A stretch of DNA of 32,741 bases from a bacterium (lineage in GTDB: Bacteria > Patescibacteriota > Minisyncoccia > Phycocordibacterales > Phycocordibacteraceae). The notes beneath the pieces were generated by a model that made no database searches, was not told the DNA's origin, and saw only the letters and a program-made list of their open reading frames with translations. A program made the translations under genes and the position numbers. Location of the stretch: the NCBI GenBank assembly GCA_021782715.1, contig JAJXUR010000001.1:1-32741 (forward strand). The letters run 5' to 3'. Shown here piece after piece: positions 15 through 15,024 of this stretch (positions within the stretch are counted from its first letter, which is position 1; each line of letters opens with the position of its first letter).

Positions 15-265
15 ATAGCGGGGTAGAGGAGAGCTGTGTCCCACAGGCGGGAGGGCAGTTGCAAAGCTTCCCGTAAGAAAAGTAGAATACATATAGCGGG
101 GTAGAGGAGAGTTGGTAATCCAAGCGGGAGGGCGAGTGCGAAGCTCTTCAGGTCATGATAGCTATAACATAGCGGGGTAGAGGAGAGCTGTGTCCCACAG
201 GCGGGAGGGCAGTTGCAAAGCTTCCCGTAAGAAAAGTAGAATACATATAGCGGGGTAGAGGAGAG
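15..265 (+). repeat. Tandem array of four copies of the 19-nt block ATAGCGGGGTAGAGGAGAG (2 leader nt plus tRNA-Met positions 1-17). Copies start at 15, 93, 169 and 247, giving a 76-78 nt period. The fourth copy is the real tRNA 5' end.
   Basis: Read directly. Units 15-92 and 169-246 are identical. Unit 93-168 differs after the 19-mer but keeps GCGGGAGGG, which resembles the anticodon-stem 5' strand. Each pseudo-unit replaces the D-arm 3' side with a small hairpin: CTGTG-TCC-CACAG or TTGG-TAAT-CCAA. Confidence 0.9.
213..242 (+). promoter_or_regulatory. Sigma70-like promoter TTGCAA-N18-TAGAAT, ending about 7 nt before tRNA position 1. An identical copy at 59-88 faces pseudo-unit 2.
   Basis: Hexamers and spacing read from the sequence. 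There is no experimental support. Confidence 0.45.
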
Positions 266-319
266 GTACCTCGGGAGGCTCATAACCTCCAGACGCCGGT
301 TCGATTCCGGCCCCCGCAA
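249..319 (+). tRNA. tRNA-Met, anticodon CAT, initiator-like; CCA is not encoded
   Basis: A manual cloverleaf fits. Acceptor is AGCGGGG/CCCCGCA with a 1:72 A.A mismatch. D stem is GAGG/CCTC with A11:T24. Anticodon arm is GGAGG-CTCATAA-CCTCC. Variable loop is 4 nt. T arm is GCCGG-TTCGATT-CCGGC. The 3' end CCGGCCCCCGCAAC matches my memory of E. coli tRNA-fMet. Only 2 of the 3 canonical G:C pairs are present at the base of the anticodon stem. Confidence 0.85.
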
Positions 320-390
320 CACGGTTGTGAGTCAGTGTCAAGTACCGTCCCCCATCAGAAATCTCTGAAATCGGGTACAGTACCGCTAGG
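320..390 (+). repeat. Partial copy (M1) of the module core, directly abutting the tRNA 3' end
   Basis: CACGGTTGTGA ... AGTACCG ... GGGTACAGTACCGCTAGG aligns with the cores at 2289, 3914 and 6018. Confidence 0.6.
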
Positions 391-430
391 CATGAAGCTC
401 CGAAAAATAAAAAAGCGCATGCAACACCAG

Positions 431-757
431 ATGAAATTATCGACAGAGCCTTTCAATCAGATTGCTTCTGGTGCGAAGGTCATTGAGTCGCGTCTCTTTG
501 ATGAGAAGCGCCAACAAATCGCGCTCGGTGATGAGATAGAGTTCAGTGAGAACGATCACCCAGAAAACAAGGTGCGTACGAAGGTTATCGGGCTTCTTCG
601 CTATCAATCGTTTAAAGACCTTTTCGCGGACCATGAGCCGGCGCTCTTTGGCGGCGAGAGCAGGGAGTTTCTCTTCAGTCAGATTAAACAATTCTATTCG
701 GACGAAGACGAGCAGAAGTATGGTGTCGTGGGCGTGCGAATCGAAAAACTTGACTAA
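431..757 (+). CDS. ASCH domain protein. ATG 431 is preferred, with ATG 419 as an alternative. The track start at 335 lies inside the repeat/tRNA trailer.
   Basis: MKLSTEPFNQIASGAKVIESRLFDEKRQ..GDEIEF resembles the ASCH (ASC-1 homology) N-terminus. The protein would be about 108 aa. Confidence 0.7.
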   Translation: MKLSTEPFNQIASGAKVIESRLFDEKRQQIALGDEIEFSENDHPENKVRTKVIGLLRYQSFKDLFADHEPALFGGESREFLFSQIKQFYSDEDEQKYGVVGVRIEKLD

Positions 758-778
758 GTGAGCATATTTCCGAAAAGA

Positions 779-817
779 ACACAGAAGCCGCGACGCACGT
801 CGCGGCTTCTGTGTTTG
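779..817 (+). terminator. Hairpin with a 16-bp perfect stem, ACACAGAAGCCGCGAC-GCAC-GTCGCGGCTTCTGTGT, followed by TTT
   Basis: Read directly. It lies 3' of the ASCH gene. The same stem recurs at 17454-17493. Confidence 0.6.
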
Positions 818-835
818 TCCAGTATCATTGCGTGT

Positions 836-1075
836 ATGAAGATCTACGCCGAAGTTGGGATTGGGAATGGCACGTTCTTCTCAACTGAATACGAAGATGG
901 TGATCGGGAATATCGAGTCTCAAGATTCGTGAGACCACCACGTGTAATGGAATATTATGTTCGTATTTGGATACGAAAGACGGTGTATATATTCTCGACT
1001 AACGAGGGTTTCAAGAAAGTCCCAAAAGATAAAACCAGATTCAAGCTCCTGTTTGGAGTGGGCGGCGTGCGTTAG
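836..1075 (+). CDS. Hypothetical small protein, 79 aa
   Basis: This is an ORF only. The track start at 758 would read through the terminator hairpin, so ATG 836 is preferred. Confidence 0.45.
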   Translation: MKIYAEVGIGNGTFFSTEYEDGDREYRVSRFVRPPRVMEYYVRIWIRKTVYIFSTNEGFKKVPKDKTRFKLLFGVGGVR

Positions 1076-1084
1076 TATAACAAT

Positions 1085-1720
1085 ATGATCAAGAGTATCT
1101 TCCTCCTCAGCATGATGAGCCCGCTCGATGAGAGTCTGCGCGAAGCGCTCGCCAGAGAGATTCTCAAGCGCGGCACGAAGGTGGCATATATATCTTCAAG
1201 TCCGCAGACTGGCGACCAACCATATTACCAATCCACCATTGCCGACTATACTGCCATTAGTCCCGACATCCGCATCGACTATTTCGACCTCTCAGATGCC
1301 TTTACGGATGAAATGCTTGCAGGACTTTCTTCCTATGCCGCCATCTATCTCTCGGGAGGGAATACGTTCACGTTCATGGATAGTGCACGGAAGCGCGGAC
1401 TCCAGACACTGCTTGAACAGCATCTAGCAAACGGTGGCGTCCTTGTCGGTGCGAGCGCAGGGAGCATTATGTGCACACCATCGATCGAGCTCGCGAAATT
1501 TGGTGACGAGAATGAGGTTGGCATGATCGACTTCTCGGGCTTCGGTTTTGTCGATTTCGAGTTTCATCCGCACTTCACGGGCGATCAGTACGAGCACATG
1601 CATCTTACAGAATACCAACGCACGCACGGGCGGGAGATTTATACATGCAAGGACGGAGCGGGGCTGCATGTTTCTGATTTAGGAGTAGAAGCATTTGGAA
1701 GTGTATCGAAGTATACTTAA
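1085..1720 (+). CDS. S51 family peptidase (peptidase E / cyanophycinase-like)
   Basis: LSGGNTF and VGASAGS motifs are typical of the S51 serine peptidase fold. Confidence 0.7.
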   Translation: MIKSIFLLSMMSPLDESLREALAREILKRGTKVAYISSSPQTGDQPYYQSTIADYTAISPDIRIDYFDLSDAFTDEMLAGLSSYAAIYLSGGNTFTFMDSARKRGLQTLLEQHLANGGVLVGASAGSIMCTPSIELAKFGDENEVGMIDFSGFGFVDFEFHPHFTGDQYEHMHLTEYQRTHGREIYTCKDGAGLHVSDLGVEAFGSVSKYT

Positions 1721-1724
1721 CAAT

Positions 1725-2099
1725 ATGGAAAAACAACCGACCAGCAATATGGAAAACAAAATAACCAACTCTGCCGAATATCTCGGTAAGACGGTTGCGA
1801 TAAAAATCGATCGACAGCTCGGGTCGAAGCACCCGAAGCACGGATTTGTGTATGAGCTCAACTATGGCTTCGTGCCAGATACTATCTCACCCGATGGAGA
1901 AGAACTCGATGCGTATTTGCTTGGCGTCGATACCCCTGTCGAGACATTTACGGGCGAGTGCATTGCGATTATTCACCGCACCAACGATGATGATGACAAA
2001 CTGATTGTCGTGCCAGAAGGGAATGTTTTTTCAGACGAAGAAATCCGCACGATGACGAATTTCCAAGAGCAATTCTTCAAATCAGAGATTGTGAGATAA
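1725..2099 (+). CDS. Inorganic diphosphatase-like protein (short family I PPase fold)
   Basis: NYGFVPDT..DGEELDAYLL...DDDDKLIVVP resembles the PPase core NYGFIPxT..DGDPLDxLVL..D.KIIAVP. ATG 1725 avoids overlap with the upstream gene. Confidence 0.5.
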   Translation: MEKQPTSNMENKITNSAEYLGKTVAIKIDRQLGSKHPKHGFVYELNYGFVPDTISPDGEELDAYLLGVDTPVETFTGECIAIIHRTNDDDDKLIVVPEGNVFSDEEIRTMTNFQEQFFKSEIVR

Positions 2100-2135
2100 A
2101 CATACATGATCTGATGTATAAGAATATCTGAGCAT

Positions 2136-2565
2136 GGGCGCGGGAATCGAACTATAGCGAGTAAGGTAAAAAATGGGGATAGGAATCGAACTCTAGCAAA
2201 TACGGGACGAAATCGTCGATTCGATTCGCGCCCCCGCAACAAACGAGCGAAGGCGAGTGCAGTGCCCAGCGCCAGCAGGCGGCGGGTGCACGGTTGTGAC
2301 GCCAGGAACCAGTACCGACAGGCATCAAAATTGGTACTGTACCGCTCAGGGTGTTCACCAGAAAAAGCTCGCAAATACAATGCGAGCTTTTTCTGTTATG
2401 TAGCATTTCCAACATATTTCCAGTTCGATTCCGGCTCTCGTATTCGGTGCAGTTTCGTGTCGCAATCACATCAAAATTGATCTGGTTTTGAGCAGGGGCA
2501 CAGGAATCGAACTGGCGAAAGAAAGTGAATACGCCGGTTCCTGACTTCCCGTCCTCCCGAGGGGT
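2136..2565 (+). repeat. Intergenic repeat module M2: tRNA-fragment head, tRNA 3'-end-like site, 117-nt core, and tail hairpin
   Basis: GGAATCGAAC (reverse complement of a T-loop) occurs at 2143, 2182 and 2503. TCGATTCGATTCGCGCCCCCGCAAC at 2215-2240 resembles the tRNA 3' end. The core at 2289-2405 is 115/117 identical to 3914-4030. Confidence 0.8.
2362..2392 (+). terminator. Intrinsic terminator AAAAAGCTCGCA-loop-TGCGAGCTTTTT
   Basis: 8-bp stem flanked by an A-run and a T-run. It closes the 117-nt core. Confidence 0.8.
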
Positions 2566-2597
2566 CAGTACAGTTTTAGGGTTGCCGGCAATGACCA

Positions 2598-2626
2598 TTG
2601 ACGATATGCATAATCCATGTTATCTT
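2598..2626 (+). promoter_or_regulatory. Promoter-like TTGACG-N17-(TGt)TATCTT upstream of the 2798 gene
   Basis: Hexamers and an extended -10 TG were read from the sequence. About 170 nt of structured leader follows. Confidence 0.45.
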
Positions 2627-2797
2627 AACGGCAGCTCTCAGGCTCTTTCCATCCCAAGAATCACTCCCCATGAAGCGAGCTTTGTGCGACCTATCTTTTA
2701 CAATTGTTATCGCAAGATAGCTAACTAGGTCGTACGCAGCTCGCCTCATGGGAGGACAGAGTCGCTCACCCGACGGTTCGGGACAAGGGATAACGTC

Positions 2798-3694
2798 ATG
2801 ACGACGATTACTCAAGCTGCACAAGCAACAGCCGGTCAAATCAAGCAGATCAACCGGTTTGGCTCCGACGCCATCGAGAAAGTCCTCGGTGAATTCGGCC
2901 TCGACAACCCTGGCGCTCAACGCGTCATCGAACACGGCGACGAATTCTCCGAAGCTATCCGTATCGCAGTGCTCGCCTCGCTCAAAGACCTGTCGGTCTT
3001 CGACAAGTACAAGAACGAAGAAGTATCCTCGACGTACGGCTACCTCTCTGGCTACAAGAAGCCGAAGAGTATCACCGAGCAGACCAACATCCTCCGTCAG
3101 ATGTTCCCTGGTATTGGCTTTGCCGACGAGAAGCTTGCCGAACGTGAAGTGCCGAAGAATGCCGACAACGGATGGTTCGCCATCCCGAAGTGGCAGTCGC
3201 TCGCACCAACCTATGGTGAAGCCGTCCAACTGGTGCTGAACAAACTCAATGAATCCCGTAACGGTGCGTTCTACAACTACCGCGAAGGTGAACTGGGTCC
3301 TGATCAGCTCCGCCAATCAGCGAAGACGGTAAGTATGTTCCAGAAGCTTGCTGAAGAGCAGAGCAAGTACGACATCCTTGTGGTCGCAGCCCAATTCGGC
3401 ATACGCCACCGTGGTCGCTCCGTTCGTCGTGTGCGTGAGATCCTGCTCGGCAACGAGTTTGGCCTCGGCGCATTTGCCGTCGGCATCATGCTCCTCACGC
3501 ATCCGGAACGTTTTCAGCACGACAATGACCTCTACATCGACTGCGCCGGCGACGAGTTCAAGCCGAGTGACGAGCACGAGTTCTCGCGCGCCCCGATCTG
3601 GAACTTCGACGACGACGAGCTCAAGTTCGACGCGTGCGGGGTCGGCAATGCGGACTTCAACTACGGCTCGGCTTCCGGCTTCCTTCCGCAGTGA
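2798..3694 (+). CDS. Hypothetical protein, 298 aa, no family recognised
   Basis: Long ORF with no predicted TM segments by eye. It is preceded by the M2 promoter and leader. Confidence 0.7.
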   Translation: MTTITQAAQATAGQIKQINRFGSDAIEKVLGEFGLDNPGAQRVIEHGDEFSEAIRIAVLASLKDLSVFDKYKNEEVSSTYGYLSGYKKPKSITEQTNILRQMFPGIGFADEKLAEREVPKNADNGWFAIPKWQSLAPTYGEAVQLVLNKLNESRNGAFYNYREGELGPDQLRQSAKTVSMFQKLAEEQSKYDILVVAAQFGIRHRGRSVRRVREILLGNEFGLGAFAVGIMLLTHPERFQHDNDLYIDCAGDEFKPSDEHEFSRAPIWNFDDDELKFDACGVGNADFNYGSASGFLPQ

Positions 3695-3766
3695 TTCTTG
3701 CTGCTTGAGTTCTTGGGTCTTTTGCAATTTAATTCTTTTGCTTGATCCTTGGGCTCGAAAATTTTC

Positions 3767-3805
3767 GGGGTTATTCACTTGCTGGATAACCCCGATTTCT
3801 TTTTA
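3767..3805 (+). terminator. Intrinsic terminator GGGGTTAT-loop-ATAACCCC followed by a T-rich tract
   Basis: Read directly, 3' of the 2798-3694 gene. Confidence 0.7.
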
Positions 3806-3808
3806 TAA

Positions 3809-4190
3809 TGGGCGTCGGAATCGAACCGCAGCGAGCAAAGTAAAAAATGGGGGCAGGAATCGAACTTGAGTATCTAGGCCGTAGAAAGTCCAGTTCGATT
3901 ATGGACCCGGCAACACGGTTGTGACGCCAGGAACCAGTACCGACAGGCATCAAAACTGGTACTGTACCGCTCAGGGTGTTCACCAGAAAAAGCTCGCAAA
4001 TACCATGCGAGCTTTTTCTGTTATGTAGCAAATACAACAGATATTCAGTTCGATTCCGATTCTCGTATTGAACGACGTTTCGTGTTGCAATCACATCCAA
4101 GTCGGCCTGATTTTAAGCGGGGGGCGCGGGAATCGAACTGGCGAAACTCAGTGTCTACAGCGGTTCCCGATCCCCGTCCTTCCGTGGGTG
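3809..4190 (+). repeat. Intergenic repeat module M3, same architecture as M2
   Basis: GGAATCGAAC occurs at 3817, 3856 and 4129. CAGTTCGATTATGGACCCGGCAAC at 3891-3914 resembles the tRNA 3' end. The core spans 3914-4030 and the tail hairpin spans 4127-4169. Confidence 0.8.
3987..4017 (+). terminator. Intrinsic terminator, copy of 2362-2392 with one change in the loop
   Basis: Read directly. Confidence 0.8.
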
Positions 4191-4217
4191 GCGAGAATAT
4201 TCACCGTTCAACTTATG

Positions 4218-4226
4218 TGGTATACT
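4218..4226 (+). promoter_or_regulatory. Extended -10 element TGgTATACT upstream of the ABC-F gene
   Basis: Same position and form as the TGtTATCTT element in M2. No good -35 is present. Confidence 0.4.
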
Positions 4227-4296
4227 AAACTCACTCCAATGAAGTATTACGCATAAGCTTTTATCAGCTAATCACGGGGCCGACACACGCCCCGGT

Positions 4297-5904
4297 ATGC
4301 GTATGCAAATACTTCTCTCTACAAAAGACATAGGGTTCGAACTTCCGGATAAAACGCTATTTAAAGCGCTTACGTTTCCCCTTTCCAAAGGCGATCGCAT
4401 AGGACTCATTGGAAAGAACGGCGAAGGGAAAACGACGATTCTTAAGATCCTGGCTAAGGTGGCAGAACCAAGCTCTGGGCACGTGAATGTCATCGGGAAA
4501 GTCCATTATGTCCCGCAACTGGATTTCGCGCTTTTCGAGCAGGCTGACACGGTGGTTGTTTTTCTCAAAAGCAAAGGTATCTCATGGCCCCTCGTACAGG
4601 CGTCACTCGGTCGACTCTTTGGTGTGCCGAGTATTACTAAGGATAAAGAAATGCGAGCACTATCTGGAGGCGAGCTTGCCAAGCTGTTGATTGCCATAGC
4701 CGATACGGATAGGCCAGATATCCTCTTGCTCGATGAGCCGACTAACCATCTCGATGTCGAAGGTCTGGAAGTCTTGAAGAACTACCTACTTACGTTTAAG
4801 GGCGCGTTCGTTGTGGTATCTCATGACCCTTTGTTCTTGGATCATGTCGTATCTGCCATTTGGGAGATCGACATGGGAAGCCTGTCCCGCTTTGGTGGCA
4901 ACTACTCGGAGTACCAGGAACAGAAGCGACTAGCCGATGAAGCCCGTGAACGCGATCTTGAAGCAGCAAAGAAAGACGTGAAGAAAGCACGCAGAGCAAT
5001 TGAAGCTCGCGAGACTCGGGTCGTTCGTGCCGCACGTACCGGGAGGCTTGCTAAACTTGAGCCAAGTCGGGACAAAATGGCCGAGGCGCACCGCACCAAC
5101 ATGGCCGAACGGGAGGCGGGGAAACTGAAACGCCGACAAGACCGCATGATGGAAGAGCGACAGCAACACGTCTCGCAATTGGAAAGACCGAAACGAAAGA
5201 CGGCACATCTTGATCTTGCTGTCGGCGCGGAGCGTTCTAAGCGGATGCTCGTTAGCGTGTCTGACGGCCTGCTTGGAGTGGGAAATACGAATCTAATTCA
5301 GGATATCAGTCTGCGTATAGAATTTGGCGACCGCATCGTCTTCACTGGTAAGAATGGCTCGGGGAAGAGCCTCCTCGTTAAGGCACTCATGGGTATGCCA
5401 GGCCCGTTCTCGTTCGAAGGGACAATCAGGCGTGGAGAAAATCTCGATGCGGTGTATATGGATCAGAAATATCAATCTGTTGATCCCGAACTCTCCATTC
5501 TCGAGAATCTTCTGCAGGCGAATCCACACTTAGATGAAAATGCCGCTCGAGGTCAGCTCGGCAAGTTTCTTTTTGGCGTGGATGTGAGCATCAAGAAAAA
5601 GTCTGGGACACTTTCGGGCGGAGAAATCGCTCGTCTTGTCCTTGCGCAGGTTACGTCTAAACCGATTGATCTGCTCGTTCTTGATGAACCTACGAACAAT
5701 CTTGATATTGAAACGCTAGATATTATCGCTGACGCCCTCCGGGATTTTTCAGGTGCGCTAGTAGTTGTATCGCACAACGTTCACTTTCTGTCGCGACTCG
5801 GGATTAATCGTGCATACGTTATTAGTGAAGAGCGATTGAAGGAGATGAAGTTCTTGCCTGAGAACGAAGTTGAATTTTATTCTGAGCTTGTTGCTGCGGA
5901 ATAA
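4297..5904 (+). CDS. ABC-F family ATPase: two ABC domains joined by a charged linker, no TM domain
   Basis: Walker A motifs are GKNGEGKT and GKNGSGKS. LSGGE occurs twice. Walker B motifs are LLLDEPTNHLD and LVLDEPTNNLD. The interdomain linker is rich in K/R/E. Confidence 0.85.
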   Translation: MRMQILLSTKDIGFELPDKTLFKALTFPLSKGDRIGLIGKNGEGKTTILKILAKVAEPSSGHVNVIGKVHYVPQLDFALFEQADTVVVFLKSKGISWPLVQASLGRLFGVPSITKDKEMRALSGGELAKLLIAIADTDRPDILLLDEPTNHLDVEGLEVLKNYLLTFKGAFVVVSHDPLFLDHVVSAIWEIDMGSLSRFGGNYSEYQEQKRLADEARERDLEAAKKDVKKARRAIEARETRVVRAARTGRLAKLEPSRDKMAEAHRTNMAEREAGKLKRRQDRMMEERQQHVSQLERPKRKTAHLDLAVGAERSKRMLVSVSDGLLGVGNTNLIQDISLRIEFGDRIVFTGKNGSGKSLLVKALMGMPGPFSFEGTIRRGENLDAVYMDQKYQSVDPELSILENLLQANPHLDENAARGQLGKFLFGVDVSIKKKSGTLSGGEIARLVLAQVTSKPIDLLVLDEPTNNLDIETLDIIADALRDFSGALVVVSHNVHFLSRLGINRAYVISEERLKEMKFLPENEVEFYSELVAAE

Positions 5905-5907
5905 AGA

Positions 5908-6047
5908 AAAAATGGGGGCAGGAATCGAACTGTAGCGAGCAAAGCAAAAAATGGGAGCAGGGATCGAACTCTAGCAAATACGGGGCGAAATCGTCGATTC
6001 GATTATGGACCCAGCAACACGGTTGTGACGCCAGGAACCAGTACCGG
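5908..6047 (+). repeat. Intergenic repeat module M4: head plus the first 30 nt of the core
   Basis: GGAATCGAAC occurs at 5921 and the variant GGGATCGAAC at 5960. The head is near-identical to the M2 head (CTCTAGCAAATACGGGrCGAAATCGTCGATTCGATT). The site and core start are near-identical to M3. Confidence 0.75.
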
Positions 6048-6088
6048 CTCGCCTAAAGGTCAGTACGGTATCGGCAGGCATCACGTAT

Positions 6089-6125
6089 GCAAAGATCGCG
6101 ACAATTGTCGCGATCTTTGCATTTT
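6089..6125 (+). terminator. Perfect 14-bp hairpin GCAAAGATCGCGAC-AATT-GTCGCGATCTTTGC followed by ATTTT
   Basis: Read directly. It ends 18 nt before the ATG at 6143. Confidence 0.75.
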
Positions 6126-6142
6126 AGAGATAAAGTTGGAGT

Positions 6143-7264
6143 ATGGATCACGAACAAACTATAGATTCGACCCTGATCACAAAGGACGAGCTGAAGGGGA
6201 AATTAATTGAGTTTTTCCAGATTGCAAAAGCATCTGGAGATTTGAGTGCTGGTATTCGAAGGTATCTAGAGTTTGTGAAAGACAACTATCACAGCCTCGA
6301 TGCGGAGGCGAAACTCGTGGGAGACAAGGCATTTGATGCTATAGGAGAAGCGACTGCGGAGGCTCTAAATAAAATGCCCGATAGTGTCGAGAAAAGACGT
6401 CTTGCTAGACTGCACGCAAAATCTCAAGGTCGACATTGGGACATAAAGGAGCTGTCAAAATCTCTCGAGGCGGGAACGCATCTCAAAGAGAAAATCTTGC
6501 AGGAGACCGATGATTTCTTCTTTGAGCATGTCCAACTGATTGCAGATTTTATACATGATGTAATCAGCGGTTCGGTTCACGGTCCAGATCTGGCGCTCCT
6601 GAGTCTGTATTGCTCAGCTCTTGATGAGTTGATTGTTTCCAGGCATTTGACTCAGCACGGCTATACACCGCAAGCCTTAGCACATCAGCGCACAGTTCAC
6701 GAAATCTTAGATCAAATAGAACTTTTTAGCAAAAAGCCGGAATACTTGGATTTGTGGGCGAGCGAGACCTCAGAGGACAGAAAGAAGGCACGTTGGGGAT
6801 TACGCCCGAAAGGGGTTCGTGAAAAACTCGGTAGGGAGGGTTATGACCCAATCTTCAGCTTCTTATCTGAAATGGGTTCACACTCCACAATGAAATACAT
6901 TCAGTCGAAAGTTTTTATGCAAAGACCGCATAAGGATGGCGACGTCAAAGGCGAAGCAAAGATTTTCGTCGGCGGAAGTCCGCGAACCGATACGCTCATG
7001 GTTGCCAGTACAGGGTTAGTACAATCAGTCATGGGCACCCTCACCTCCTTCAGTGTCACCTATCAAGATTTTCTCTTGGCTGAAGAAGGGATTCAGGTAT
7101 TGCAAAGCGCATTTGAAAAATATAAAGGATATATGCTCAGGAACTTTGTCGATTGGATGAGGGCGGAAGGGGCGAATGTGTCTTCTCTGGAGACTTACAT
7201 TAAAAGCCTGGACCAGGAGACATTAATGCGAATGTCAGAGGAAAAGTCTTCCGGATCTATTTAG
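6143..7264 (+). CDS. Hypothetical protein, 373 aa, with a vague resemblance to DUF5677-type helical proteins
   Basis: Long ORF with a GGAG 8 nt upstream. The family guess comes from memory only. Confidence 0.7.
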   Translation: MDHEQTIDSTLITKDELKGKLIEFFQIAKASGDLSAGIRRYLEFVKDNYHSLDAEAKLVGDKAFDAIGEATAEALNKMPDSVEKRRLARLHAKSQGRHWDIKELSKSLEAGTHLKEKILQETDDFFFEHVQLIADFIHDVISGSVHGPDLALLSLYCSALDELIVSRHLTQHGYTPQALAHQRTVHEILDQIELFSKKPEYLDLWASETSEDRKKARWGLRPKGVREKLGREGYDPIFSFLSEMGSHSTMKYIQSKVFMQRPHKDGDVKGEAKIFVGGSPRTDTLMVASTGLVQSVMGTLTSFSVTYQDFLLAEEGIQVLQSAFEKYKGYMLRNFVDWMRAEGANVSSLETYIKSLDQETLMRMSEEKSSGSI

Positions 7265-7413
7265 TCTGCAGCAAGTGATACGTTTTTTCCTTTAAGAACA
7301 AGTTTCCCGCGCAACTGCTCGAGCAGTTGTCGCTTCTCCTCGATCGTGCCTGCTTCAAGTAGATACTTCGCGTAGCGCTTGATATCCACGCCCTTCGGCG
7401 AGACTATTTTCGT
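7261..7413 (-). pseudogene. C-terminal gene remnant of about 50 codons with no start codon
   Basis: The minus frame reads TKIVSPKGVDIKRYAKYLLEAGTIEEKRQLLEQLRGKLVLKGKNVSLAAD*. It is bounded upstream by TGA. Its stop overlaps the stop of the 6143 gene. Confidence 0.35.
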
Positions 7414-7500
7414 TCACGAGATTTTCTTGAAGTCCAGACTCCAGTTTTGTGCAAACAATATAACGGAGGCAGATCATATGTCGTAACGACCGAGTATTTT

Positions 7501-7704
7501 GGTGGAACGTTAGGCTTCAACAGTGGGACTATGGAAGAAAGAATGCAGGCACTCGTCGGTTCGGGGTTTGAGCGCATATTTCAGATAGGTAGCGTGTTCA
7601 GAAGCTCAGAGGAGCTGACTTTCGTAGAGGGGTACGCGGCGCATATGGATTGGGAAACAGGCCAATCTATGATTCGGAATATGTGTCGCTACGTAGCAAA
7701 AAAA
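7501..7704 (+). pseudogene. Fragment of a class II aminoacyl-tRNA synthetase (Lys/Asn/Asp-type, motif 2 region)
   Basis: GFERIFQIGSVFRSSEE..TFVEGYAAHMDW resembles GFERVFEIGRNFRNEG...EFTMLEFYQAY. The fragment is truncated on both sides and lacks the catalytic loop. Confidence 0.45.
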
Positions 7705-8135
7705 ATGGTTGAAGACGAATATTCTTCCGTGCACGGCGTGCATGCGTTCTGTTTTGTGGGTGATCAACTTGTCATCGTGTATTCTGACAAGAAAGGGTAT
7801 TGGACGCCGCCAGGTGGCGGGGTAGAGCCGGGCGAGACAGTTGAGGAAGCGATTGTGCGCGAAGTGTTCGAAGAAACAAATATGCGCGTGCTCAAGCAAC
7901 GTGTCATCGGCTACCAAGAAGTCTCTGAACCGCATCGGCTCACCGTGCAGGTACGCGCGGTCTGTATCGTCGAGCGCCAATCGGACCCTTTGTCGCAGAT
8001 GCCGACTCCAGCGATGGCGAAGGCGTCACCGAGATAAGACTTATCGATCCGAAGGATATAAAACAGTACTTTGATTGGGGCGAAGTCGGTGAGCATGTGC
8101 TTGTTCGCGCACTGGAATTAAAAAGTCTACTCTGA
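7705..8135 (+). pseudogene. NUDIX hydrolase with a frameshift near 7975-7990, or an assembly indel
   Basis: The Nudix box is GGGVEPGETVEEAIVREVFEETN. After ..AVCIVER the protein-like sequence continues in another frame as GPFVADADSSDGEGVTEIRLIDPKDIKQYFDWGEVGEHVLVRALELKSLL*, with its stop at 8133-8135. Confidence 0.6.
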
Positions 8136-8160
8136 TTCTTCATTGCTTAATGAGAGGTAA

Positions 8161-8199
8161 AATGAACCACGGCCGGCTTTTAGCCGGCCGTGGTTCATT
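8161..8199. terminator. Perfect 17-bp hairpin AATGAACCACGGCCGGC-loop-GCCGGCCGTGGTTCATT
   Basis: Read directly. The track start at 8190 lies inside it. Confidence 0.75.
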
Positions 8200-8219
8200 G
8201 TTGGTGTACTATACGAAAT

Positions 8220-8858
8220 ATGAACAAATCAGAGGTGAGCCTCTCTTTTATTTACAGCAAAGAAAGGGAAGTGGCGCGAGTTTTGGAAACCATTCAGTGG
8301 CTGCCGTGGTATCGCGATCATAAGTATCCAGATAATTTTGCAAAGCTGCCGCAAGAAATAACGGAGATGAGTTCTGTGGAAGAGATAGAGAAGGCTGTTT
8401 CCATCGAATATATGGAACAAGATTTTCGTGATATCGAAGAATATGTTCTAAGTCAGTGGGGAGGTTTCCAGGATGGATTCGAAAAGATGCGAGCGATAAA
8501 AGACCTTCGGTTAAGTGATTCTTATGAAGTTAGTTTAACGAGATATGGAAGTGGCGGGAGTTACAATGCCGCTAGAAATTCGCTCATCGTTAATATAAGA
8601 AATTCCTCTCAAAGAGAGCGGATTGCCGGGACGATAGTTCATGAAATCGTCCATATGACCATTCAGTATCTTATTGATGCTCATTCTGTTTCTCATTGGA
8701 GAAAGGAAGCGTTAGTCGACCATTTGTTTGCGTATTTCTTCCCGACGCTACATATGAGACAGTCGATTCCCGAGGACGTGACCATTGTCGATGATTCATT
8801 TAAGACTATGTTTCCTGATCTTGAGGAAATAGTTAAGACAATCAGCAATGCCCCATAA
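8220..8858 (+). CDS. Hypothetical protein with an HExxH (HEIVH) zinc-metalloprotease-like motif
   Basis: ORF from ATG 8220 with a TIVHEIVHMT motif. No family was recognised. Confidence 0.65.
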   Translation: MNKSEVSLSFIYSKEREVARVLETIQWLPWYRDHKYPDNFAKLPQEITEMSSVEEIEKAVSIEYMEQDFRDIEEYVLSQWGGFQDGFEKMRAIKDLRLSDSYEVSLTRYGSGGSYNAARNSLIVNIRNSSQRERIAGTIVHEIVHMTIQYLIDAHSVSHWRKEALVDHLFAYFFPTLHMRQSIPEDVTIVDDSFKTMFPDLEEIVKTISNAP

Positions 8859-8882
8859 AAATATTATTGCCTAATCTACAGG

Positions 8883-8916
8883 TATGGGTACGGGTACGGT
8901 ACCGGCCTGGGCAACA
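8883..8916 (+). repeat. Left 34-nt direct repeat flanking the copper operon
   Basis: TATGGGTACGGGTACGGTACCGGCCTGGGCAACA matches 13000-13033 at 30/34 positions. It is followed by CAGTCCGATTCCGAT..ATTGAATG, which is homologous to the M3 tail at 4046-4072. Confidence 0.7.
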
Positions 8917-8970
8917 ACATACTATCCAGTCCGATTCCGATATTGAATGTTCACTCAACAGTACTTGCTC

Positions 8971-8989
8971 TATACCCCTGGGGGGTATA
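8971..8989 (+). promoter_or_regulatory. Candidate CsoR operator, palindrome TATACCCC-TG-GGGGGTATA
   Basis: A GC-core inverted repeat of the TACCC..GGGTA type lies 11 nt upstream of the csoR ATG. Confidence 0.6.
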
Positions 8990-8999
8990 TGCTGCAGGG

Positions 9000-9275
9000 A
9001 TGAAGTACTTGCACGACGAAGGGAAGCAGAAGGTCATACGACGACTCAAGATCATCGAGGGCCAGATCCGAGGCCTGCAAGAGATGGTTGGGCAGGACAC
9101 CTACTGCATCGACATCATCACCCAGAGCTCCGCCGTGAAGCAGGCGCTTTCCGGTGTTGAGGACACGCTCATGGAAAATCACTTGAACCATTGCGTGCAC
9201 AAACAGATGACATCGGGCCAGACAGGGAAGGCAGTAGAAGAGGTCCTGAAGGTCTACAAACTTAAGAGAAAATAA
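9000..9275 (+). CDS. csoR: CsoR/RcnR family metal-sensing repressor
   Basis: The protein is 91 aa. [27 protein letters not shown] and the H..C ligand pattern are typical of the DUF156/CsoR family. Confidence 0.8.
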
Positions 9276-9276
9276 T

Positions 9277-11574
9277 ATGGAGTCACGCACCTACCGAGTC
9301 CAAGGAATGCATTGCGCCTCCTGCGCACACATCATCGAGAAAACGCTCAAGAAAGTCGAGGGCGTCCATTCCGTAGAAGTGAACTACGCTACAGAAGCGG
9401 CGAAAGTCTCCCATGATTCTGCAGTCACGAGTGCACAGGACCTTTCGAAGAAGATAGAGCCGCTCGGGTACTCGCTCGTCACCAATGCGCCATCAGCACA
9501 CGACATGGGAATGTCCGAAAGCGAACATGCAGCGCATCTCGGCCTTAATCAATCAAAAGCCGAGAAACTCGCAGAGCTTGCCACTATGAAGACCAAGGTA
9601 GTCACCGTTATGCCTATGGCAGCAGTTGCGATTGTCATTATGGCGTGGAATATCCTTGCAGAGTTTGACGCCGTCGCGCCACTTTCTCGATCCCTAAATG
9701 ACTCTCTCAATATATTACTCGCGCTTATGGCAACCTACGCGCTTTTTGTCGTCGGGAAGCCGTACCTCATGGGGTTCTACCGGTTTCTGCGTTACGGTGT
9801 CGCAAACATGGACACGCTCATCGGCATCGGTACGTCAGCGGCATTTCTCTATAGTATTATCATCACGGTCTTTCGTGAGGCGGTACGCCCTTACGTAAAC
9901 GTCAGTGTCACGTATTTCGATGTGGCTATTGTTGTGATTGCGTTTATTACGTTCGGGAAGTACCTTGAGGCGCGCGCGAAGATAAAGACAGGCGACGCCA
10001 TAGAGAAACTCCTCATGCTCCAAGCAAAAACAGCACTTGTCATTCGAGACGGTATTGAGGTGGAGATACCTGTCGAGCAGGTTGTGCATGGCGACCTCAT
10101 CATCGTAAAGCCAGCTGGAAAGATCCCTGTCGATGGTGTCCTCACTGGAGGATCGTCTTATGTGGACGAGTCGATGGTGTCGGGAGAGCCGGTGCCAGTC
10201 GAGAAACGTGTGGGTGATACGGTGGTCGCAGGGACATTGAACACCACCGGTTCGTTTACTTTCAGGGCAACGAAGGTCGGCTCGGAGACACTTCTGGCGC
10301 ACATCATACATATGGTGGAAGAGGCGCAAGGAAGTAAGGCGCCAATCCAAGCTTTGGCTGATAAAATTTCCGGCGTCTTTGTCCCTGCGGTACTTGCTAT
10401 AGCATTTCTTTCGCTCGGTGCATGGCTTTTCTTCGGTATTCCGTCGCTCGGGTTTGCACAGGCGTTGTCATTCGGTCTCGTGTCATTCGTTGGCGTCCTC
10501 GTGATTGCTTGTCCGTGCGCGCTTGGGCTTGCCACGCCGACAGCGATTATCGTGGGTGTTGGCAAGGGGGCAAAAGAAGGAATTCTCATCAAGGACGCTG
10601 CGACTCTAGAGAAGCTTCACCAGGTAGACGTGGTTGTCGTTGATAAAACAGGAACCATTACGAAAGGTAAGCCAGAACTTGTCTCGATACAAAACCAAAG
10701 TGACAAAAGCGAAGAAGAGCTCGTTGCCATCCTTGCCTCTCTTGAAAGTAAGTCAGAGCATCCGATTGCAAGCGCGATTGTCTCGTATGCAAAGACAGGT
10801 TCTGTCGCCCTTCGGCAAGTCGAGAACTTTAGCGTGCTCAAAGGAAGAGGGGTACGTGGCAATATCGATGGTGTGGAATATTACGCGGGTAATCCGCGTC
10901 TTATCCTCGAATTGTCGCTTGCGCTCGATATGAGTGCGATAGAACGCGAAACCCATGAAGGAAAAACTCCGGTAATTCTTACCACTACTACAAAAGTACT
11001 CGGCATCGTGCTGGTGGCTGATGCGATAAAGCCAGAAGCGGAAGAGGCGGTTACGAGTCTCCATAAGCTCGGTATACGCGTCGTGATGCTCACCGGCGAT
11101 AATGCGCAAACTGCCGACTTCATTGCAAAGCAGGTAGGTATAGACGAAATCGTCGCCGAAGTTATGCCCGAGGACAAGCTGAACAAGATTAAAGAACTGC
11201 AGGCGCAGGGTTGTGTGGTCGCCATGGCGGGAGACGGCATCAACGATGCGCCAGCGCTCGCACAAGCGGACGTGGGCATCGCGATGGCGACGGGAACCGA
11301 TGTTGCCATAGAGAGCGCCGGCATGACGCTTCTTCATGGTGATATCTCGAAGATCGTCAAAGCGATACGCCTCTCGAAGTTAACGATGCATGGTATCAAG
11401 CAGAATCTCTTTTTTGCCTTCGCGTACAATATCATCGGCATTCCGCTTGCAAGCGGACTCTTCTATCCGGTGTTCGGGTGGCTTTTGTCGCCAGTGTTTG
11501 CTGGATTTGCGATGGCCATGTCGAGCGTATCGGTTGTCGGGAATTCGCTACGTCTTAAAACTAAACAACTATGA
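9277..11574 (+). CDS. copA: Cu(I)-translocating P1B-type ATPase
   Basis: It has an N-terminal HMA domain (GMHCASC), the TM motif [10 protein letters not shown], and the DKTGTIT, SEHP and GDGINDAP motifs. Confidence 0.95.
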
Positions 11575-12593
11575 ACACCACCACACACGTATTTCACGTT
11601 AAGGGAATGCACTGCAAAGCGTGCACCGTCCTCATTGAGGAAATGTTTAACGAACTTCCAAATGTAGAGAGCGCGCACGTGTCACTTTCAGGACAGCAGG
11701 TGACGGTAGCGGGGGAGTTTACCAATACGCCGGAGAAAATAGCCGACGAACTCACGAAACTCGTACAGAGCCATGGGTACAGTATCGCGGTTGAGAAAAG
11801 CGCCCATAACGCAGGGTGGGGAGACTTCGTCTATGCGCTTCCTGTGGCGCTCGTTCTCATTGCTGGATTCATTCTGCTACAAAAGGCAGGACTGACTTCG
11901 CTTATTACTAGCTCGAAGGTGAGCTACGGCACAGCGTTCCTCATAGGGCTTATAGCGTCAGTTTCCTCGTGTCTCGCCATAGTCGGAGGTTTGGTGCTGT
12001 CTCTCTCGGCTAGTTCGGCGAAAGAGGGCGGGACCTGGCGCACGCCAGTACTCTTTCATGTGGGGCGCCTCGGGGGATTCTTTATTCTGGGTGGATTGGT
12101 TGGCGTAATTGGAAACTCGCTTCACCTCGGGCTCATGGCTAACGTGATATTGAGTAGTATCGTTGCACTCGTCATGCTTATTCTCGGCATTAACCTGCTC
12201 GACGTCTCCCATTTCACTCAAAGACTGCAAGTCACGCTCCCTACGCGCTTCTCGAAGCACATTGTCGCGGGGAGCAAGAAGGATCACTACCTCGCGCCGC
12301 TTTTAATCGGTGTCGGCACGTTCTTTCTGCCGTGCGGATTCACGCAGTCGATGCAGCTTTATGCACTTTCAACCGGTAGTTTCTCGCAAGGAGCCCTAAC
12401 GATGCTCGTCTTTGCACTCGGCACTTTCCCGGTGCTTGCGTTCCTTTCCTTCGGATCGCTCAATATTGTGCACAAACCATGGAAAGGGATTTTCTTCAAG
12501 ACGGCTGGCATAATTGTCATAGCGCTTGCAGTTCTGAACCTCAGTAGTGCGCTTGCTACGGCTGGAATTATTAACCCACTTTTCAACTTCTAG
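11571..12593 (+). CDS. HMA-domain membrane protein (DsbD_2 / TauE-SafE-like permease fold)
   Basis: It has an N-terminal GMHCKAC metal-binding domain and about 6 TM segments with SSC and FLPCG motifs. Its start overlaps the copA stop in an ATGA. Confidence 0.7.
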
Positions 12594-12594
12594 T

Positions 12595-12990
12595 ATGAAC
12601 GTACGAATAATCATTGCTCTTGCTGCCAGTGCGGTACTTATCGGATGGGCGTTCTGGTTCGTTTCAGCAAAACCTCAAGAGAATGGCGCGGGCGTGACGG
12701 CGCCGACGGCTACCATAGTTGATGGTAAACAGTTCGTTGATATCACCGCGAAGGGCGGTTACTCTCCGCGAGTGGTGGTAGCAAAAGCCGGAATACCAAC
12801 GATCTTGCGCGTTACCACGAACGGCACCTTCGACTGCTCGGCTAGCGTGGTAATCCCGAAGCTCTCATACCAGAAATTCCTGCAGCCGTCTGGCACGGAA
12901 GACATTGCTATCTCTGCTGAACAAGCCCAAGGAACCCTGCAGGGGCTGTGCGCGATGGGGATGTATAACTTCCAAATCAAATTCGAATGA
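12595..12990 (+). CDS. Membrane-anchored cupredoxin-like protein
   Basis: It has an N-terminal TM segment, a beta-rich C-terminus and a C..CAMGM motif. This type of protein commonly neighbours copper operons. ATG 12595 immediately follows the upstream stop. Confidence 0.55.
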   Translation: MNVRIIIALAASAVLIGWAFWFVSAKPQENGAGVTAPTATIVDGKQFVDITAKGGYSPRVVVAKAGIPTILRVTTNGTFDCSASVVIPKLSYQKFLQPSGTEDIAISAEQAQGTLQGLCAMGMYNFQIKFE

Positions 12991-12999
12991 GTCTTGGAA

Positions 13000-13033
13000 T
13001 ATGGGTACGGGTACCGTACCGCCCCGAGCAACA
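13000..13033 (+). repeat. Right 34-nt direct repeat. It is also the most distal decayed copy of the tRNA 3' end.
   Basis: CCGCCCCGAGCAACACG compares with the tRNA sequence CCGGCCCCCGCAACACG. It sits at the GC-content jump. Confidence 0.7.
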
Positions 13034-13034
13034 C

Positions 13035-13074
13035 GCAAAGCGAAGCCCGGCGCAAGCCGGGTCTTCGCATTTGC
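13035..13074 (+). terminator. Long imperfect hairpin GCAAAGCGAAGCCCGGC-GCAA-GCCGGGTCTTCGCATTTGC
   Basis: Read directly. It has one bulge and no strong T tract. Confidence 0.6.
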
Positions 13075-13126
13075 GCAGCGGTCGGGCGCGTGATATAGTT
13101 CGAATATCTAAGTAATATATACTCGC

Positions 13127-14398: not shown

Positions 14399-15018
14399 AT
14401 ATGACCTCATCCCGGAAAAGACTTTTCTCTATCGGCGGTATCGCGCTCCTTATCATCATCGTCGGCGCGGCGACGGCGTATCTCATCATCACGAGCGGCC
14501 GCGTGTCTATCGACACGGCAGGCATAGAGGCGCCGCTCATCAGTCTCACACCCGCCGCGCCCGGCCGCCTCGATGCGCTCTATGTGCAGGCGGGCGATAC
14601 GGTCGCTGCGAATCAGCCGGTGGCGTCAGTGGGCAGTCAGACTATCACGAGCAAAGTGGCAGGCCTCGTCGTCTCAGTCGATGATACGGTCGGCGCTCAG
14701 GTGAGTGCTGCGACACCGGTCGTCACGATGATCGACCCGTCGCAGCTGCGCGTCGTCGGCCGCATCGACGAGAACAAGGGTCTCGCGCAAGTGCATGTCG
14801 GCGACCCGATCACCTTCACGGTCGATGCGTTCGGCGGGAAGATCTTCTCTGGTATCGTCGACGAAATCGCTCCGACCTCGAATCAATCCGGTATTGTTTT
14901 CAATATCTCCGACCAGCGCCAGGTGCAGCAGTTCGACGTGAAAGCTCGCTTCGATACGAGCGCATACGCGCAGCTGCGTAACGGCATGTCGGCACGCATG
15001 ACGATCTACACGCGCTAA
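14395..15018 (+). CDS. Short HlyD-family secretion/adaptor protein
   Basis: It has an N-terminal TM segment and lipoyl/beta-barrel-like segments. Its start overlaps the upstream stop. Confidence 0.65.
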   Translation: MNMTSSRKRLFSIGGIALLIIIVGAATAYLIITSGRVSIDTAGIEAPLISLTPAAPGRLDALYVQAGDTVAANQPVASVGSQTITSKVAGLVVSVDDTVGAQVSAATPVVTMIDPSQLRVVGRIDENKGLAQVHVGDPITFTVDAFGGKIFSGIVDEIAPTSNQSGIVFNISDQRQVQQFDVKARFDTSAYAQLRNGMSARMTIYTR

Positions 15019-15024
15019 GACGCC

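Follow-up and report, generated by a model that had tools for sequence, protein, structure and literature searches.

A tRNA-Met gene and the island at its 3' end

The 32,741-nt stretch of DNA that we analysed (the window) comes from an ultra-small bacterium of the candidate phyla radiation (CPR), and in it a 12.7-kb island (321-13033, 49% GC) is inserted between a tRNA-Met gene (249-320) and the native terminator of that gene (13033-13075). The whole array of intergenic modules in the island hangs on this genuine tRNA-Met. The features are as follows, with LSR standing for large serine recombinase:

15-248, plus strand: three tandem 77-nt units 5' of tRNA-Met (repeat comparison, promoter-like sites)
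249-320, plus strand: tRNA-Met(CAT) without intron (ARAGORN; Rfam 58.9 bits)
321-391, plus strand: R* arm, an element-borne right-arm variant; left end of cassette 1
392-2099, plus strand: cassette 1, with ASCH, DUF3977, peptidase S51 and pyrophosphatase (Pfam)
2134-2240, plus strand: M2 head, b1-type left arm; right end of cassette 1
2241-2288, plus strand: M2 micro-insert of 48 nt between b1 arm and 28-mer
2289-2565, plus strand: M2 right arm; left end of cassette 2
2798-3694, plus strand: cassette 2, a 298-aa protein, then a terminator (3765-3795)
3808-3914, plus strand: M3 head, b2-type left arm; right end of cassette 2
3915-4190, plus strand: M3 right arm (28-mer 3915-3942, core, tail); left end of cassette 3
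4297-5904, plus strand: cassette 3, ABC-F type ATPase (Pfam)
5908-6018, plus strand: M4 head, mosaic left arm; right end of cassette 3
6019-6142, plus strand: M4 right arm, recombinase-adjacent class
7270-7425, minus strand: LSR gene remnant, last ~50 codons, convergent with the tRNA (tblastn)
7447-8140, plus strand: decayed gene pieces, one from a class II aminoacyl-tRNA synthetase and one a NUDIX gene with a frameshift (Pfam)
8883-8950, plus strand: c-type left arm (8883-8915) fused to a tail fragment, without 28-mer or core
8943-12990: copper-resistance block (CsoR, CopA, HMA-DsbD, cupredoxin), preceded by the c-type arm junction at 8883-8950
13000-13075, plus strand: island right end (attR), c-type left arm (13000-13032) and native tRNA-Met terminator hairpin (13033-13075)

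On the chromosome, the left half-site of the attachment site ('B') is formed by the 3' part of the tRNA-Met (294-320), and the 3' end seen in the window is identical in ~120 species. Each 77-nt unit upstream opens with the initial 17-19 nt of tRNA-Met and closes with a promoter-like site (TTGCAA-18-TAGAAT), and homologues of these units also lie 5' of tRNA-Met in loci L003, L007, L039, L175 and L177. At the right end of the island (13000-13075) GC content jumps from ~49% to ~60%, and the terminator hairpin located there is found directly 3' of an unoccupied tRNA-Met in L207. The first-pass annotation had overlooked the real tRNA-Met at the base of the array, whose attachment half-site is copied by what it called a "tRNA-3'-end-like site", as well as the serine recombinase remnant inside the array and the island end at 13033.

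Cassettes are shuffled among loci. The cassette 1 block occurs again in L037 and L222 with different neighbours; the cassette 2 protein, which has no Pfam match, has homologues that form a cassette in L021 and lie beside a b2 head in L216; and aminoacyl-tRNA synthetase genes are carried intact as cargo in L016, L019 and L035. The cargo of the arrays is very diverse, with 132 ORFs and 111 Pfam families.

Composite structure of the modules

The three full modules previously described (M2, M3 and M4) are present where they had been placed: over 210 nt, 2289-2498 agrees with 3914-4123 at 88% identity, and the heads (2134-2241, 3808-3915 and 5912-6019) share 70-85% identity with one another. Their mosaic relations also hold, in that CTCTAGCAAATACGGGRCGAAATCGTCGATTCGATT (subtype b1) is common to the M2 and M4 heads while M3 belongs to subtype b2, M3 and M4 share ATGGACCCRGCAAC while M2 has its 48-nt insert, and M2 and M3 share core and tail. 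The tRNA-Met 3' end followed by ACGGTTGTGA is repeated at 294, 2214, 3888 and 5992, and GTTCGATTCC-like motifs number 23 against 13.6 +/- 3.7 expected, 12 of them grouped in 298-5970 on both strands. There are three reverse tRNA-like blocks per module, the tail is strongly conserved, and internal inverted repeats such as CCAGTTCGATTCC/GGAATCGAACTGG occur.

A module is a composite junction rather than a self-contained element: it consists of the right end of the upstream block (a mimic of the tRNA-Met 3' end), the breakpoint CAAC/ACGG (the slash marks the point of the switch, here and below), and the left end of the downstream block, in which an invariant 28-mer is followed by a terminator and a tail that bears a promoter. 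The M2 head contains reverse tRNA-T-arm-like blocks (2136-2153 and 2175-2192) and a pseudo-tRNA 3' end closing in CAAC. The end of its micro-insert (...GCAGGCGGCGGGTGC/ACGG) is found again in L042, and 42-nt units resembling this insert and closing in GCAAC occur in L139, L141, L155 and L157. The M2 right arm comprises the 28-mer (2289-2316), a GTAC-motif hairpin, a terminator (2363-2396) and the conserved tail (2401-2565), and 3' of it lies a promoter-like site, TTGACG-17-TATCTT with an upstream TG (2598-2626). The M3 head is ~90% identical in L007, L011, L018, L019 and L039, and 3' of M3 direct reading of the sequence reveals an extended -10-like site, TGgTATACT (4218-4226). In the M4 head the proximal part is b1-like and the final 14 nt are those of M3; the M4 right arm, of a class that adjoins the LSR stop codon in L022, L023 and L025, contains the 28-mer (6019-6046), a GTAC hairpin, ...CAGGCATCACGTA and a perfect 18-bp palindromic terminator (6087-6122).

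These data bear out the core terminator and the earlier description of a recombining, mobility-associated family that marks the boundaries of independently acquired blocks. Each module does bring a terminator, together with a promoter-like sequence. The view of the module as a portable unit must be given up, as its left part comes from one neighbouring cassette and its right part from another, the two meeting at CAAC/ACGG, and the supposed abbreviated versions are different att components: 321-392 is the R* right-arm variant, and 8883-8915 and 13000-13032 are c-type left arms. The R* arm, ACGGTTGTGAGTCAGTGTCAAGTACCG... and then a second GTAC motif, lies directly 3' of the genuine tRNA-Met here and also follows tRNA-Met in L011/L050, L017, L144, L216 and L222. 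The c-type sequences 8883-8916 and 13000-13033 have 88% identity, and the tail at 4042-4060 has a match at 8923-8941.

Junctions and a serine recombinase family across Patescibacteria

Searches in relatives detected the 28-mer in more than 40 Patescibacteria species, once per genome locus (the 993-kb chromosome OY969413.1, with a single match, is an example of one locus per genome), either directly 3' of tRNA-Met or in arrays spaced 0.75-3.2 kb around unrelated genes. In 57/57 copies the right side is invariant and the left side variable, each left side closing in (G/C/A)(C/A)AAC. The modules match no described RNA family (Rfam), and no plasmid or phage homologue was found. Four junctions were observed (tRNA/R, c/R, c/terminator and tRNA/terminator), whose halves reassort. 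Most tRNA-Met loci of other species are in the unoccupied state, ...CAAC followed by A(A/C)G and the terminator. Junctions of a c-type arm with the terminator end the islands in the window, L015, L041 and L085, and L085 is a complete element, with tRNA/28-mer, then an LSR, then c/terminator, and with restriction-modification, RT-protease and ParB-methylase cargo.

Strains differ by insertion or excision at the exact breakpoint. Two metagenome contigs that are 99.2-99.9% identical to the island carry an additional LSR-type element exactly at CAAC/ACGG. The loci with this identity are L227, L228 and L231, compared over sequence short of their far-left tRNA junction; in them a c-type arm stands where the window has the tRNA, with the switch exactly at GCAAC/ACGG; on the c-arm side lies ParB-methylase/DpnII cargo like that of L085, and in L227 and L231 the arm precedes R*. 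L049 has one additional tRNA-proximal cassette compared with L039, and in L216 an R*-to-b2 block lies between the tRNA and the arm of another recombinase.

The window contains no intact recombinase, only the C-terminal LSR remnant at 7270-7425, which is 70-80% identical to LSRs of L011, L018, L022, L023 and L025 (tblastn, E 1e-14 to 1e-15). In relatives the genes are intact, and a recombinase with resolvase, recombinase and zinc-ribbon domains adjoins one junction, at the far end of the array and convergent to the tRNA; the L022 gene, with these Pfam domains, has PDB matches to SPbeta SprA and TP901-1 integrase. The LSR family comprises 257 loci, and in a 71-locus set the nearest downstream tRNA is convergent in 53 and co-oriented in none, with 11 downstream tRNAs lying 75-135 nt from the LSR stop codon. 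An LSR 75% identical to the reference, beside tRNA-Arg(CCT), has a right arm (AGCGCTGTGGCGCAGGGAACCGATACCG) whose kinship with the 28-mer is clear, and LSRs ~64% identical, beside tRNA-Gly, have different clade-specific arms that start AGCGGTCAGCAC directly at the tRNA 3' end. The right arm follows the recombinase rather than the tRNA.

The modules are probably attachment-site junctions that remained after small elements had been inserted serially and site-specifically at the tRNA-Met 3' end, and the inserting agent is most likely a CPR-wide family of serine recombinases with tRNA genes as targets. The Patescibacteria LSR would recombine an element site, composed of a left arm and a right arm starting ACGGTTGTGACGCCAGGAACCAGTACCG, with a chromosomal site composed of the tRNA-Met 3' end and its terminator, and strand exchange would fall within CAAC/A. 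Newcomers would enter at the tRNA-proximal junction and displace older elements outward, and recombinase genes would decay over time, leaving gene blocks with hybrid joints between them. In such a joint the "head" would be the right end of the upstream block, mimicking the tRNA half-site, and the 28-mer, core and tail would be the left end of the downstream block, serving as recombinase-binding arm, insulating terminator and promoter; the modules would look mosaic because the two sides of a joint assort independently. The role of the LSR as catalyst and the precise dinucleotide of the crossover are both inferred, and cassettes with tRNA-mimic arms but no recombinase may have been moved in trans.

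Where a c-type arm meets the 28-mer there are symmetric pairs (CAAC-ACG-GTTG, CCTGG/CCAGG, GGTAC/GTACC), with unequal spacing and a partial dyad (15/29 positions). The b-type arms do not fit the ~50-bp quasi-palindrome expected around a central dinucleotide, and in the three full modules they mimic the tRNA half-site, not the quasi-palindromic c-type partner of the 28-mer. Because of this mimicry b/28-mer joints look like attL, and canonical LSRs do not integrate via attL. Moreover, some mosaic breakpoints lie inside the left arm, ~15 nt from the junction, and a single fixed crossover does not explain them. Such breakpoints and attL-like joints would suit arrays built chiefly by homologous recombination instead of by a serine recombinase, whether through Campbell-type circle insertion, recombination after DNA uptake or gene conversion, with the conserved arms (27-nt tRNA mimic, 28-mer, ~270-nt core and tail) as homology. 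These arms are long and 75-98% identical between species, and in L021 a one-gene cassette is flanked by apparently identical copies of a ~58-nt direct repeat, in which 27 nt from the tRNA 3' end are followed by ~31 nt from the start of the right arm. Left arms of unrelated sequence (tRNA, b, c and others), however, switch to the right arm at the identical nucleotide, the c/terminator and tRNA/terminator junctions have only CAAC(A) in common with the other sites, the switch in the strain polymorphism at CAAC/ACGG is confined to 5 nt, and the association with the recombinase is very strong, which together make homologous recombination an unlikely main route.

Duplication with genes of what are mainly RNA elements, such as a tRNA-Met trailer sRNA or a leader, is considerably less plausible still. 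The core folds with z = -5.9, RNAalifold pairs the 28-mer with a tail segment with 13/13 one-sided changes compatible, and the terminator shows compensatory changes; yet double compensatory changes are absent outside the terminator, the terminator sits inside the proposed long-range helix, no Rfam family matches, arm classes with no tail or no pairing partner keep the 28-mer just as invariant, and RNA function leaves the assortment of left and right sides unexplained. We regard as highly improbable that the modules, short, repeated and intergenic with internal inverted repeats as they are, represent copies of a non-autonomous, MITE-like transposable element invading intergenic regions, given that all copies have one orientation and lie exclusively 3' of tRNA-Met at one locus per genome (none at 13-32.7 kb of the window), that module halves occur separately, and that terminal inverted repeats, target duplications and a transposase are lacking. 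An integron-type platform, with attC-like folded sites and a tyrosine integrase, would accommodate co-oriented one- to four-gene cassettes between structured repeats and the fold of the head hairpin (z = -3.6), but it has next to no probability: the main ORFs of the window include no tyrosine recombinase and none recurs in the 132 array ORFs, the enzyme found is a serine recombinase, the CAAC/ACGG junction and arm architecture are unlike attC, and the cassettes have promoter-like sites and terminators of their own.

Related systems and significance

Composite SCCmec arrays and tycheposon-type tRNA-proximal islands are the closest analogues of the proposed serial LSR-mediated insertion at tRNA-Met. 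SCC/SCCmec composites use Ccr large serine recombinases, target the 3' end of rlmH, a conserved housekeeping gene, and form tandem arrays that include recombinase-less elements, each bounded by att repeats resembling the chromosomal site (see PMC11470126). The array described here seems to share the recombinase type, the conserved-gene 3'-end target and the tandem recombinase-less elements with att repeats; it differs in that the target is clearly tRNA-Met, the host phylum is another, and the arms bear a terminator, a promoter and extra tRNA-like blocks. In the tycheposons of Prochlorococcus, each integrase clade is bound to one tRNA, tRNA-adjacent entry displaces older elements distally, and islands of these genome-streamlined hosts contain degenerate integrases, partial tRNA copies and cargo-only remnants, with tyrosine recombinases in 910/937 elements (bioRxiv 10.1101/2020.12.28.424599). 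Our arrays resemble them in tRNA-specific integrase clades, tRNA-proximal serial integration with decay and streamlined host genomes, but have an LSR in place of the characteristic tyrosine recombinase, neither replication nor packaging modules seen, very small cassettes (0.75-3.2 kb), and a 105-nt head and ~270-nt core and tail common to several species. Accretion of CIMEs and IMEs likewise places integrase-less, att-flanked elements in tandem with an integrase-bearing element that could mobilise them, relying on tyrosine integrases and conjugative helpers (PMC5704250); here mobilisation by the integrase-bearing element is a potential parallel, whereas no conjugation genes were seen.

The resemblance to integrons and MITEs that the first-pass annotation drew stands as functional analogy and fails as membership, with no IntI, attC, terminal inverted repeats, target duplications or genome dispersal. 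Like integrons, the arrays hold ordered, co-oriented, small and mostly one-gene cassettes between recombination sites, the newest nearest the platform. Unlike them, they have no attI/attC architecture, cassettes that appear to carry promoters of their own, and no sign of single-strand folded substrates; their junctions read CAAC/ACGGTTGTGA... and have left arms derived from tRNA, and attC core/inverse-core palindromes were not encountered.

Horizontal-transfer surveys of the group (e.g. PMC12455944) report islands and leave tRNA, integrase and recombinase unmentioned. Serial insertion at tRNA-Met offers a concrete, sequence-level mechanism for the gain and swap of accessory genes (metal resistance, defence systems, aminoacyl-tRNA synthetases) in ultra-small, streamlined CPR bacteria. 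It is also a caution for annotation: in these genomes, tRNA-like fragments and conserved "intergenic repeats" beside tRNA genes are recombination scars. With attB and attP sites inferred for many tRNAs, the natural serine recombinases are candidate additions to the integrase toolbox and candidate tools where organisms lack genetic tools. More tentatively, and with considerable doubt on our part, Patescibacteria may possess their own serine-recombinase cassette-capture system, in which promoter-bearing cassettes of one to a few genes would be captured and shuffled in trans at tRNA genes, with a mimic of the tRNA 3' end, attached to the 28-mer cognate to the recombinase, as the recombination site of each cassette. 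If so, the landing pad would be regenerated at every cassette boundary, and integrons would have a functional analogue that uses another enzyme and a tRNA platform.

Module anatomy and a shared breakpoint

Three intergenic modules, M2 (about 2134-2565), M3 (3808-4190) and M4 (5908-6142), had been read in the first-pass annotation as one repeat family with mosaic relations, and both points hold: M2 and M3 agree at 88% identity over 210 nt in their right arms (core plus tail), identity among the three left arms (heads) is 70-85%, and left-arm and junction alignments reproduce the mosaic relations as described. The 3' end of tRNA-Met plus ACGGTTGTGA is repeated at 2214, 3888 and 5992, and GTTCGATTCC-like motifs are in excess, concentrated in 298-5970 on both strands. 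Between the segments 8883-8916 and 13000-13033, identity is 88%. Under the mechanism we propose, each module would be the point where the right end of one block meets the left end of its successor; heads and tails assort independently, which accounts for the mosaic look.

The core opens with a 28-mer, ACGGTTGTGACGCCAGGAACCAGTACCG, that has 42 exact matches in the species-representative genome set, all of them in Patescibacteria MAGs (Kaiserbacteria, Paceibacterota, Parcubacteria and others) and at one locus per genome. It lies directly 3' of tRNA-Met in most of its loci, and the full core and tail (window 2289-2563) follow it in about a dozen, at 75-98% identity. When all 57 copies of the 28-mer were aligned, the right side was invariant and the left side variable, always ending in (G/C/A)(C/A)AAC, usually GCAAC; several left-side classes were found besides the three listed here.

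Half-sites on either side of the breakpoint
Left class B: true tRNA 3' half
Left class b: pseudo-tRNA head of ~105 nt (subtypes b1 and b2), with some 90% conservation across nine species
Left class c: GTAC-rich arm, GGGTACGGGTACAGTACCGnCnnGGGCAAC
Right arm, part 1: 28-mer and another GTAC motif, where the recombinase presumably binds
Right arm, part 2: strong terminator, predicted to shield the cassette from read-through from the tRNA or upstream
Right arm, part 3: conserved tail, then promoter-like sites TTGACG-17-TATCTT (2598-2626) and TGgTATACT (4218-4226)

The c arm partly repeats the 28-mer in inverted orientation, with the symmetric pairs CAAC-ACG-GTTG, CCTGG/CCAGG and GGTAC/GTACC, and where it lacks the 28-mer, in the window (13032) and in three related loci of other genomes or contigs (L015, L041, L085), a terminator hairpin follows directly. 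A scan for the tRNA-Met 3' end returned ~120 species, most of which pass from CAAC through A(A/C)G directly to a terminator hairpin; this arrangement is the unoccupied state. Roughly one quarter to one third of the scanned ends continue into the 28-mer or variants of it. A ~200-nt unit after the tRNA-Met terminator was seen in L004, L007 (about 300-466), L129, L145, L156, L181, L199, L200 and L225. It starts with GTTGCGGGGG, continues with a hairpin that covaries between species and then TCCGGAATCGAA, ends in GGTCCGGCCCCCGCAAC, and is followed by the 28-mer or a second terminator; Rfam gave no match for it, and it may be a long form of the b-type head.

Two smaller features sit at the breakpoint. 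Micro-inserts of 42-48 nt occur in the window (2241-2288) and in L042 (~844), L139, L141, L155 and L157, those of L141 being in tandem with GCAAC at the end of each; they may be cargo-less remnants of two half-sites alone. A weak minus-strand promoter-like match, GTCACA-16-CATAAT (6002-6029 and 3898-3925), spans the junction of b arm and 28-mer, is directed into the head, and is present only where these two are joined.

The island and its surroundings

Features of the window
249-320: genuine tRNA-Met(CAT) (ARAGORN; Rfam 58.9 bits)
321-13032: island, with attL (tRNA joined to the variant right arm) at 320/321 and attR (c arm joined to terminator) at 13032/13033
7270-7425, minus strand: remnant of a large serine recombinase (LSR), last ~50 codons, 70-80% identity, E about 1e-15

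The island bounds follow from the ends formed by c arm and terminator, together with the identity between window 13033-13075 and the terminator hairpin after tRNA-Met in L207. GC content is ~49% across 321-13032 and ~60% in the remaining window.

Upstream of tRNA-Met, three 77-nt units lie in tandem (15-248), each opened by the first 17-19 nt of the tRNA and ending in a promoter-like TTGCAA-18-TAGAAT site, with hairpins inside (units 1 and 3 fold, z = -2.1). Similar units precede tRNA-Met in L003, L007, L039, L175 and L177, and 5'-side scars or promoter duplications are possible origins. Many related species have tRNA-Met split at the anticodon by a group I intron of 210-290 nt (L013 4988-5204, 48.6 bits, and L027 3316-3513, 37.5 bits, in Rfam, with ~15 other loci); tRNA-Met adjoining the 28-mer often carries one, and the window copy is intron-less. 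Downstream, homologues of 24426-25940 and 29542-30546 adjoin tRNA-Met in other species and lie 11 kb past the island end here, so the HlyD-HlyD-MFS-MarR-cupin-phosphoketolase-acetate kinase stretch between (13076-24400, host-like GC) also appears lineage-specific. A search of L164 for an attR directly 5' of the HlyD genes found none.

A serine recombinase and strain-level variation

Clustering of ORFs from the related loci revealed conserved housekeeping synteny 5' of the tRNA (LigA, GatC, GatA and a 190-aa protein) and variable genes 3' of it, where the sole recurrent mobile gene encodes an LSR that combines resolvase, recombinase and zinc-ribbon domains and has SPbeta SprA and the TP901-1 integrase among its relatives. 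In these loci it is always tRNA-distal and convergent with the tRNA, and its stop codon lies about 350 nt (L022) or 100 nt (L025) from the 28-mer. The window's remnant is just past M4, whose right arm belongs to the recombinase-adjacent class; beside it, 7447-8140 holds gene debris, namely a frameshifted NUDIX gene and a fragment of a class II aminoacyl-tRNA synthetase, which L016, L019 and L035 carry as intact cargo.

The LSR family comprises 257 loci in the genome collection. For the 71 that have 1 kb of flank or more, the first tRNA met 3' of the LSR stop is convergent 53 times and never co-oriented; 11 are only 75-135 nt away, and tRNAs are rare on the upstream side. LSRs that share 69% identity or more with the reference are all at tRNA-Met except that of L048 (75%), which lies beside tRNA-Arg(CCT); its right arm is a clear relative of the 28-mer, indicating that the right arm travels with the enzyme and not with the tRNA. 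Clades further removed are found at tRNA-Gly, His, Arg, Ser, Lys and Leu; in every case the element arm begins right at the tRNA 3' end. L085 holds a complete 11.8-kb element running from the tRNA/28-mer junction through LSR, DpnII restriction-modification, reverse transcriptase-protease and ParB-methylase genes to c arm and terminator. A second serine recombinase lineage, 26% identical and with its own right arm (AAGGTCGGACTGTCCAGCACGGAAGTCC), is convergent to the same tRNA-Met in L136, L178, L189 and L216, so at least two lineages use the same breakpoint. Its arm abuts the tRNA directly in L136, L178 and L189; in L216 a block running from the variant right arm to a b2 head lies between.

The arrays' cargo spans 111 Pfam families in 132 ORFs, among which no recurrent tyrosine integrase or transposase was found; across all arrays cargo is co-oriented with the tRNA by 97 to 57, a modest bias from crude ORF calls that is given no weight here. 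The ASCH-DUF3977-S51 block reappears in L037 and L222 with other neighbours, the gene for a 298-aa protein is a single-gene cassette in L021 and adjoins a b2 head in L216, and CopA blocks are present in several arrays. Such recurrence beside differing genes is, in cross-genome comparison, a sign of mobility. L049 has one additional tRNA-proximal cassette relative to L039.

Exact-protein look-ups identified a pair of metagenome assemblies, each from its own sample, that match the island at 99.2-99.9% identity. Left of window 316, both have a c arm instead of tRNA-Met; before it come ParB-methylase, trypsin-like, helicase, DpnII and GmrSD genes, in the same architecture as in L085. The switch falls exactly between GCAAC and ACGGTTGTGAG, indicating that near-identical genomes differ in whether an LSR-type element occupies the tRNA-proximal junction. 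Chimeric assembly is unlikely, since the join shares only 15 nt, far under the assembler k of 141, and the junction of tRNA with the variant right arm also occurs in five other species. This strain-level polymorphism is the most direct evidence of mobility. An independent assembly of the same island (L229, contig k141_1780645) starts at window 7292, exactly at the LSR remnant, which suggests a population repeat or variant there.

Alternative readings and known systems

The b arms imitate the tRNA half-site, and their junction with the 28-mer resembles attL rather than attP, a kind of site that canonical large serine integrases are not known to use for integration. For the b-type cassettes, movement may come from relaxed (Ccr-like) recombination, from b serving as a secondary landing pad, or from homologous recombination between the long arms, and mosaic breakpoints within the head favour some homologous exchange. 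Another idea considered was that the core is a mini-element that divided a formerly continuous head and tail. In other loci the core precedes every tail found; the window's 8883-8950 junction, a tail without a core, is the only one that fits, and the idea is kept as a side remark. The TGGGGnnAGGAATCGAAC blocks are the T-arm and acceptor 3' end of a tRNA in reverse complement, with no tRNA predicted at them, and reverse GGAATCGAAC blocks occur three per module, strongly conserved. Their derivation from a real convergent tRNA was discarded, as ARAGORN gives none 3' of tRNA-Met in 105 loci. RNAalifold predicts long-range pairing of 28-mer and tail, with one-sided pairing-compatible changes as its only backing. 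As the cause of 28-mer invariance such pairing was dismissed, because other arm classes have a variable partner or none; classes that lack a tail keep the 28-mer just as invariant, and we favour its acting as a DNA site.

The likeness to integrons or MITEs raised at first reading was not upheld: there is no IntI and no attC, and the MITE reading was rejected. Rfam searches of the window and five related loci, at gathering and E-value thresholds, returned only tRNA, terminator-driven Thr_leader noise and, in other species' tRNA-Met, group I introns. Module M3 had no blastn matches in plasmid and phage collections, nor had the exact 28-mer in viral contigs. The composite arrays appear comparable to those built by Ccr serine recombinases, and the tycheposon model of tRNA-proximal island growth fits the process (10.1101/2020.12.28.424599). 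Full-text literature searches found no account of arrays in CPR bacteria that involve tRNA-targeting serine recombinases, and the principal survey of Patescibacteria horizontal transfer makes no mention of tRNA, integrase or recombinase. These arrays matter mainly for the plasticity of CPR genomes and for the recombinase/att-site pairs that they supply.
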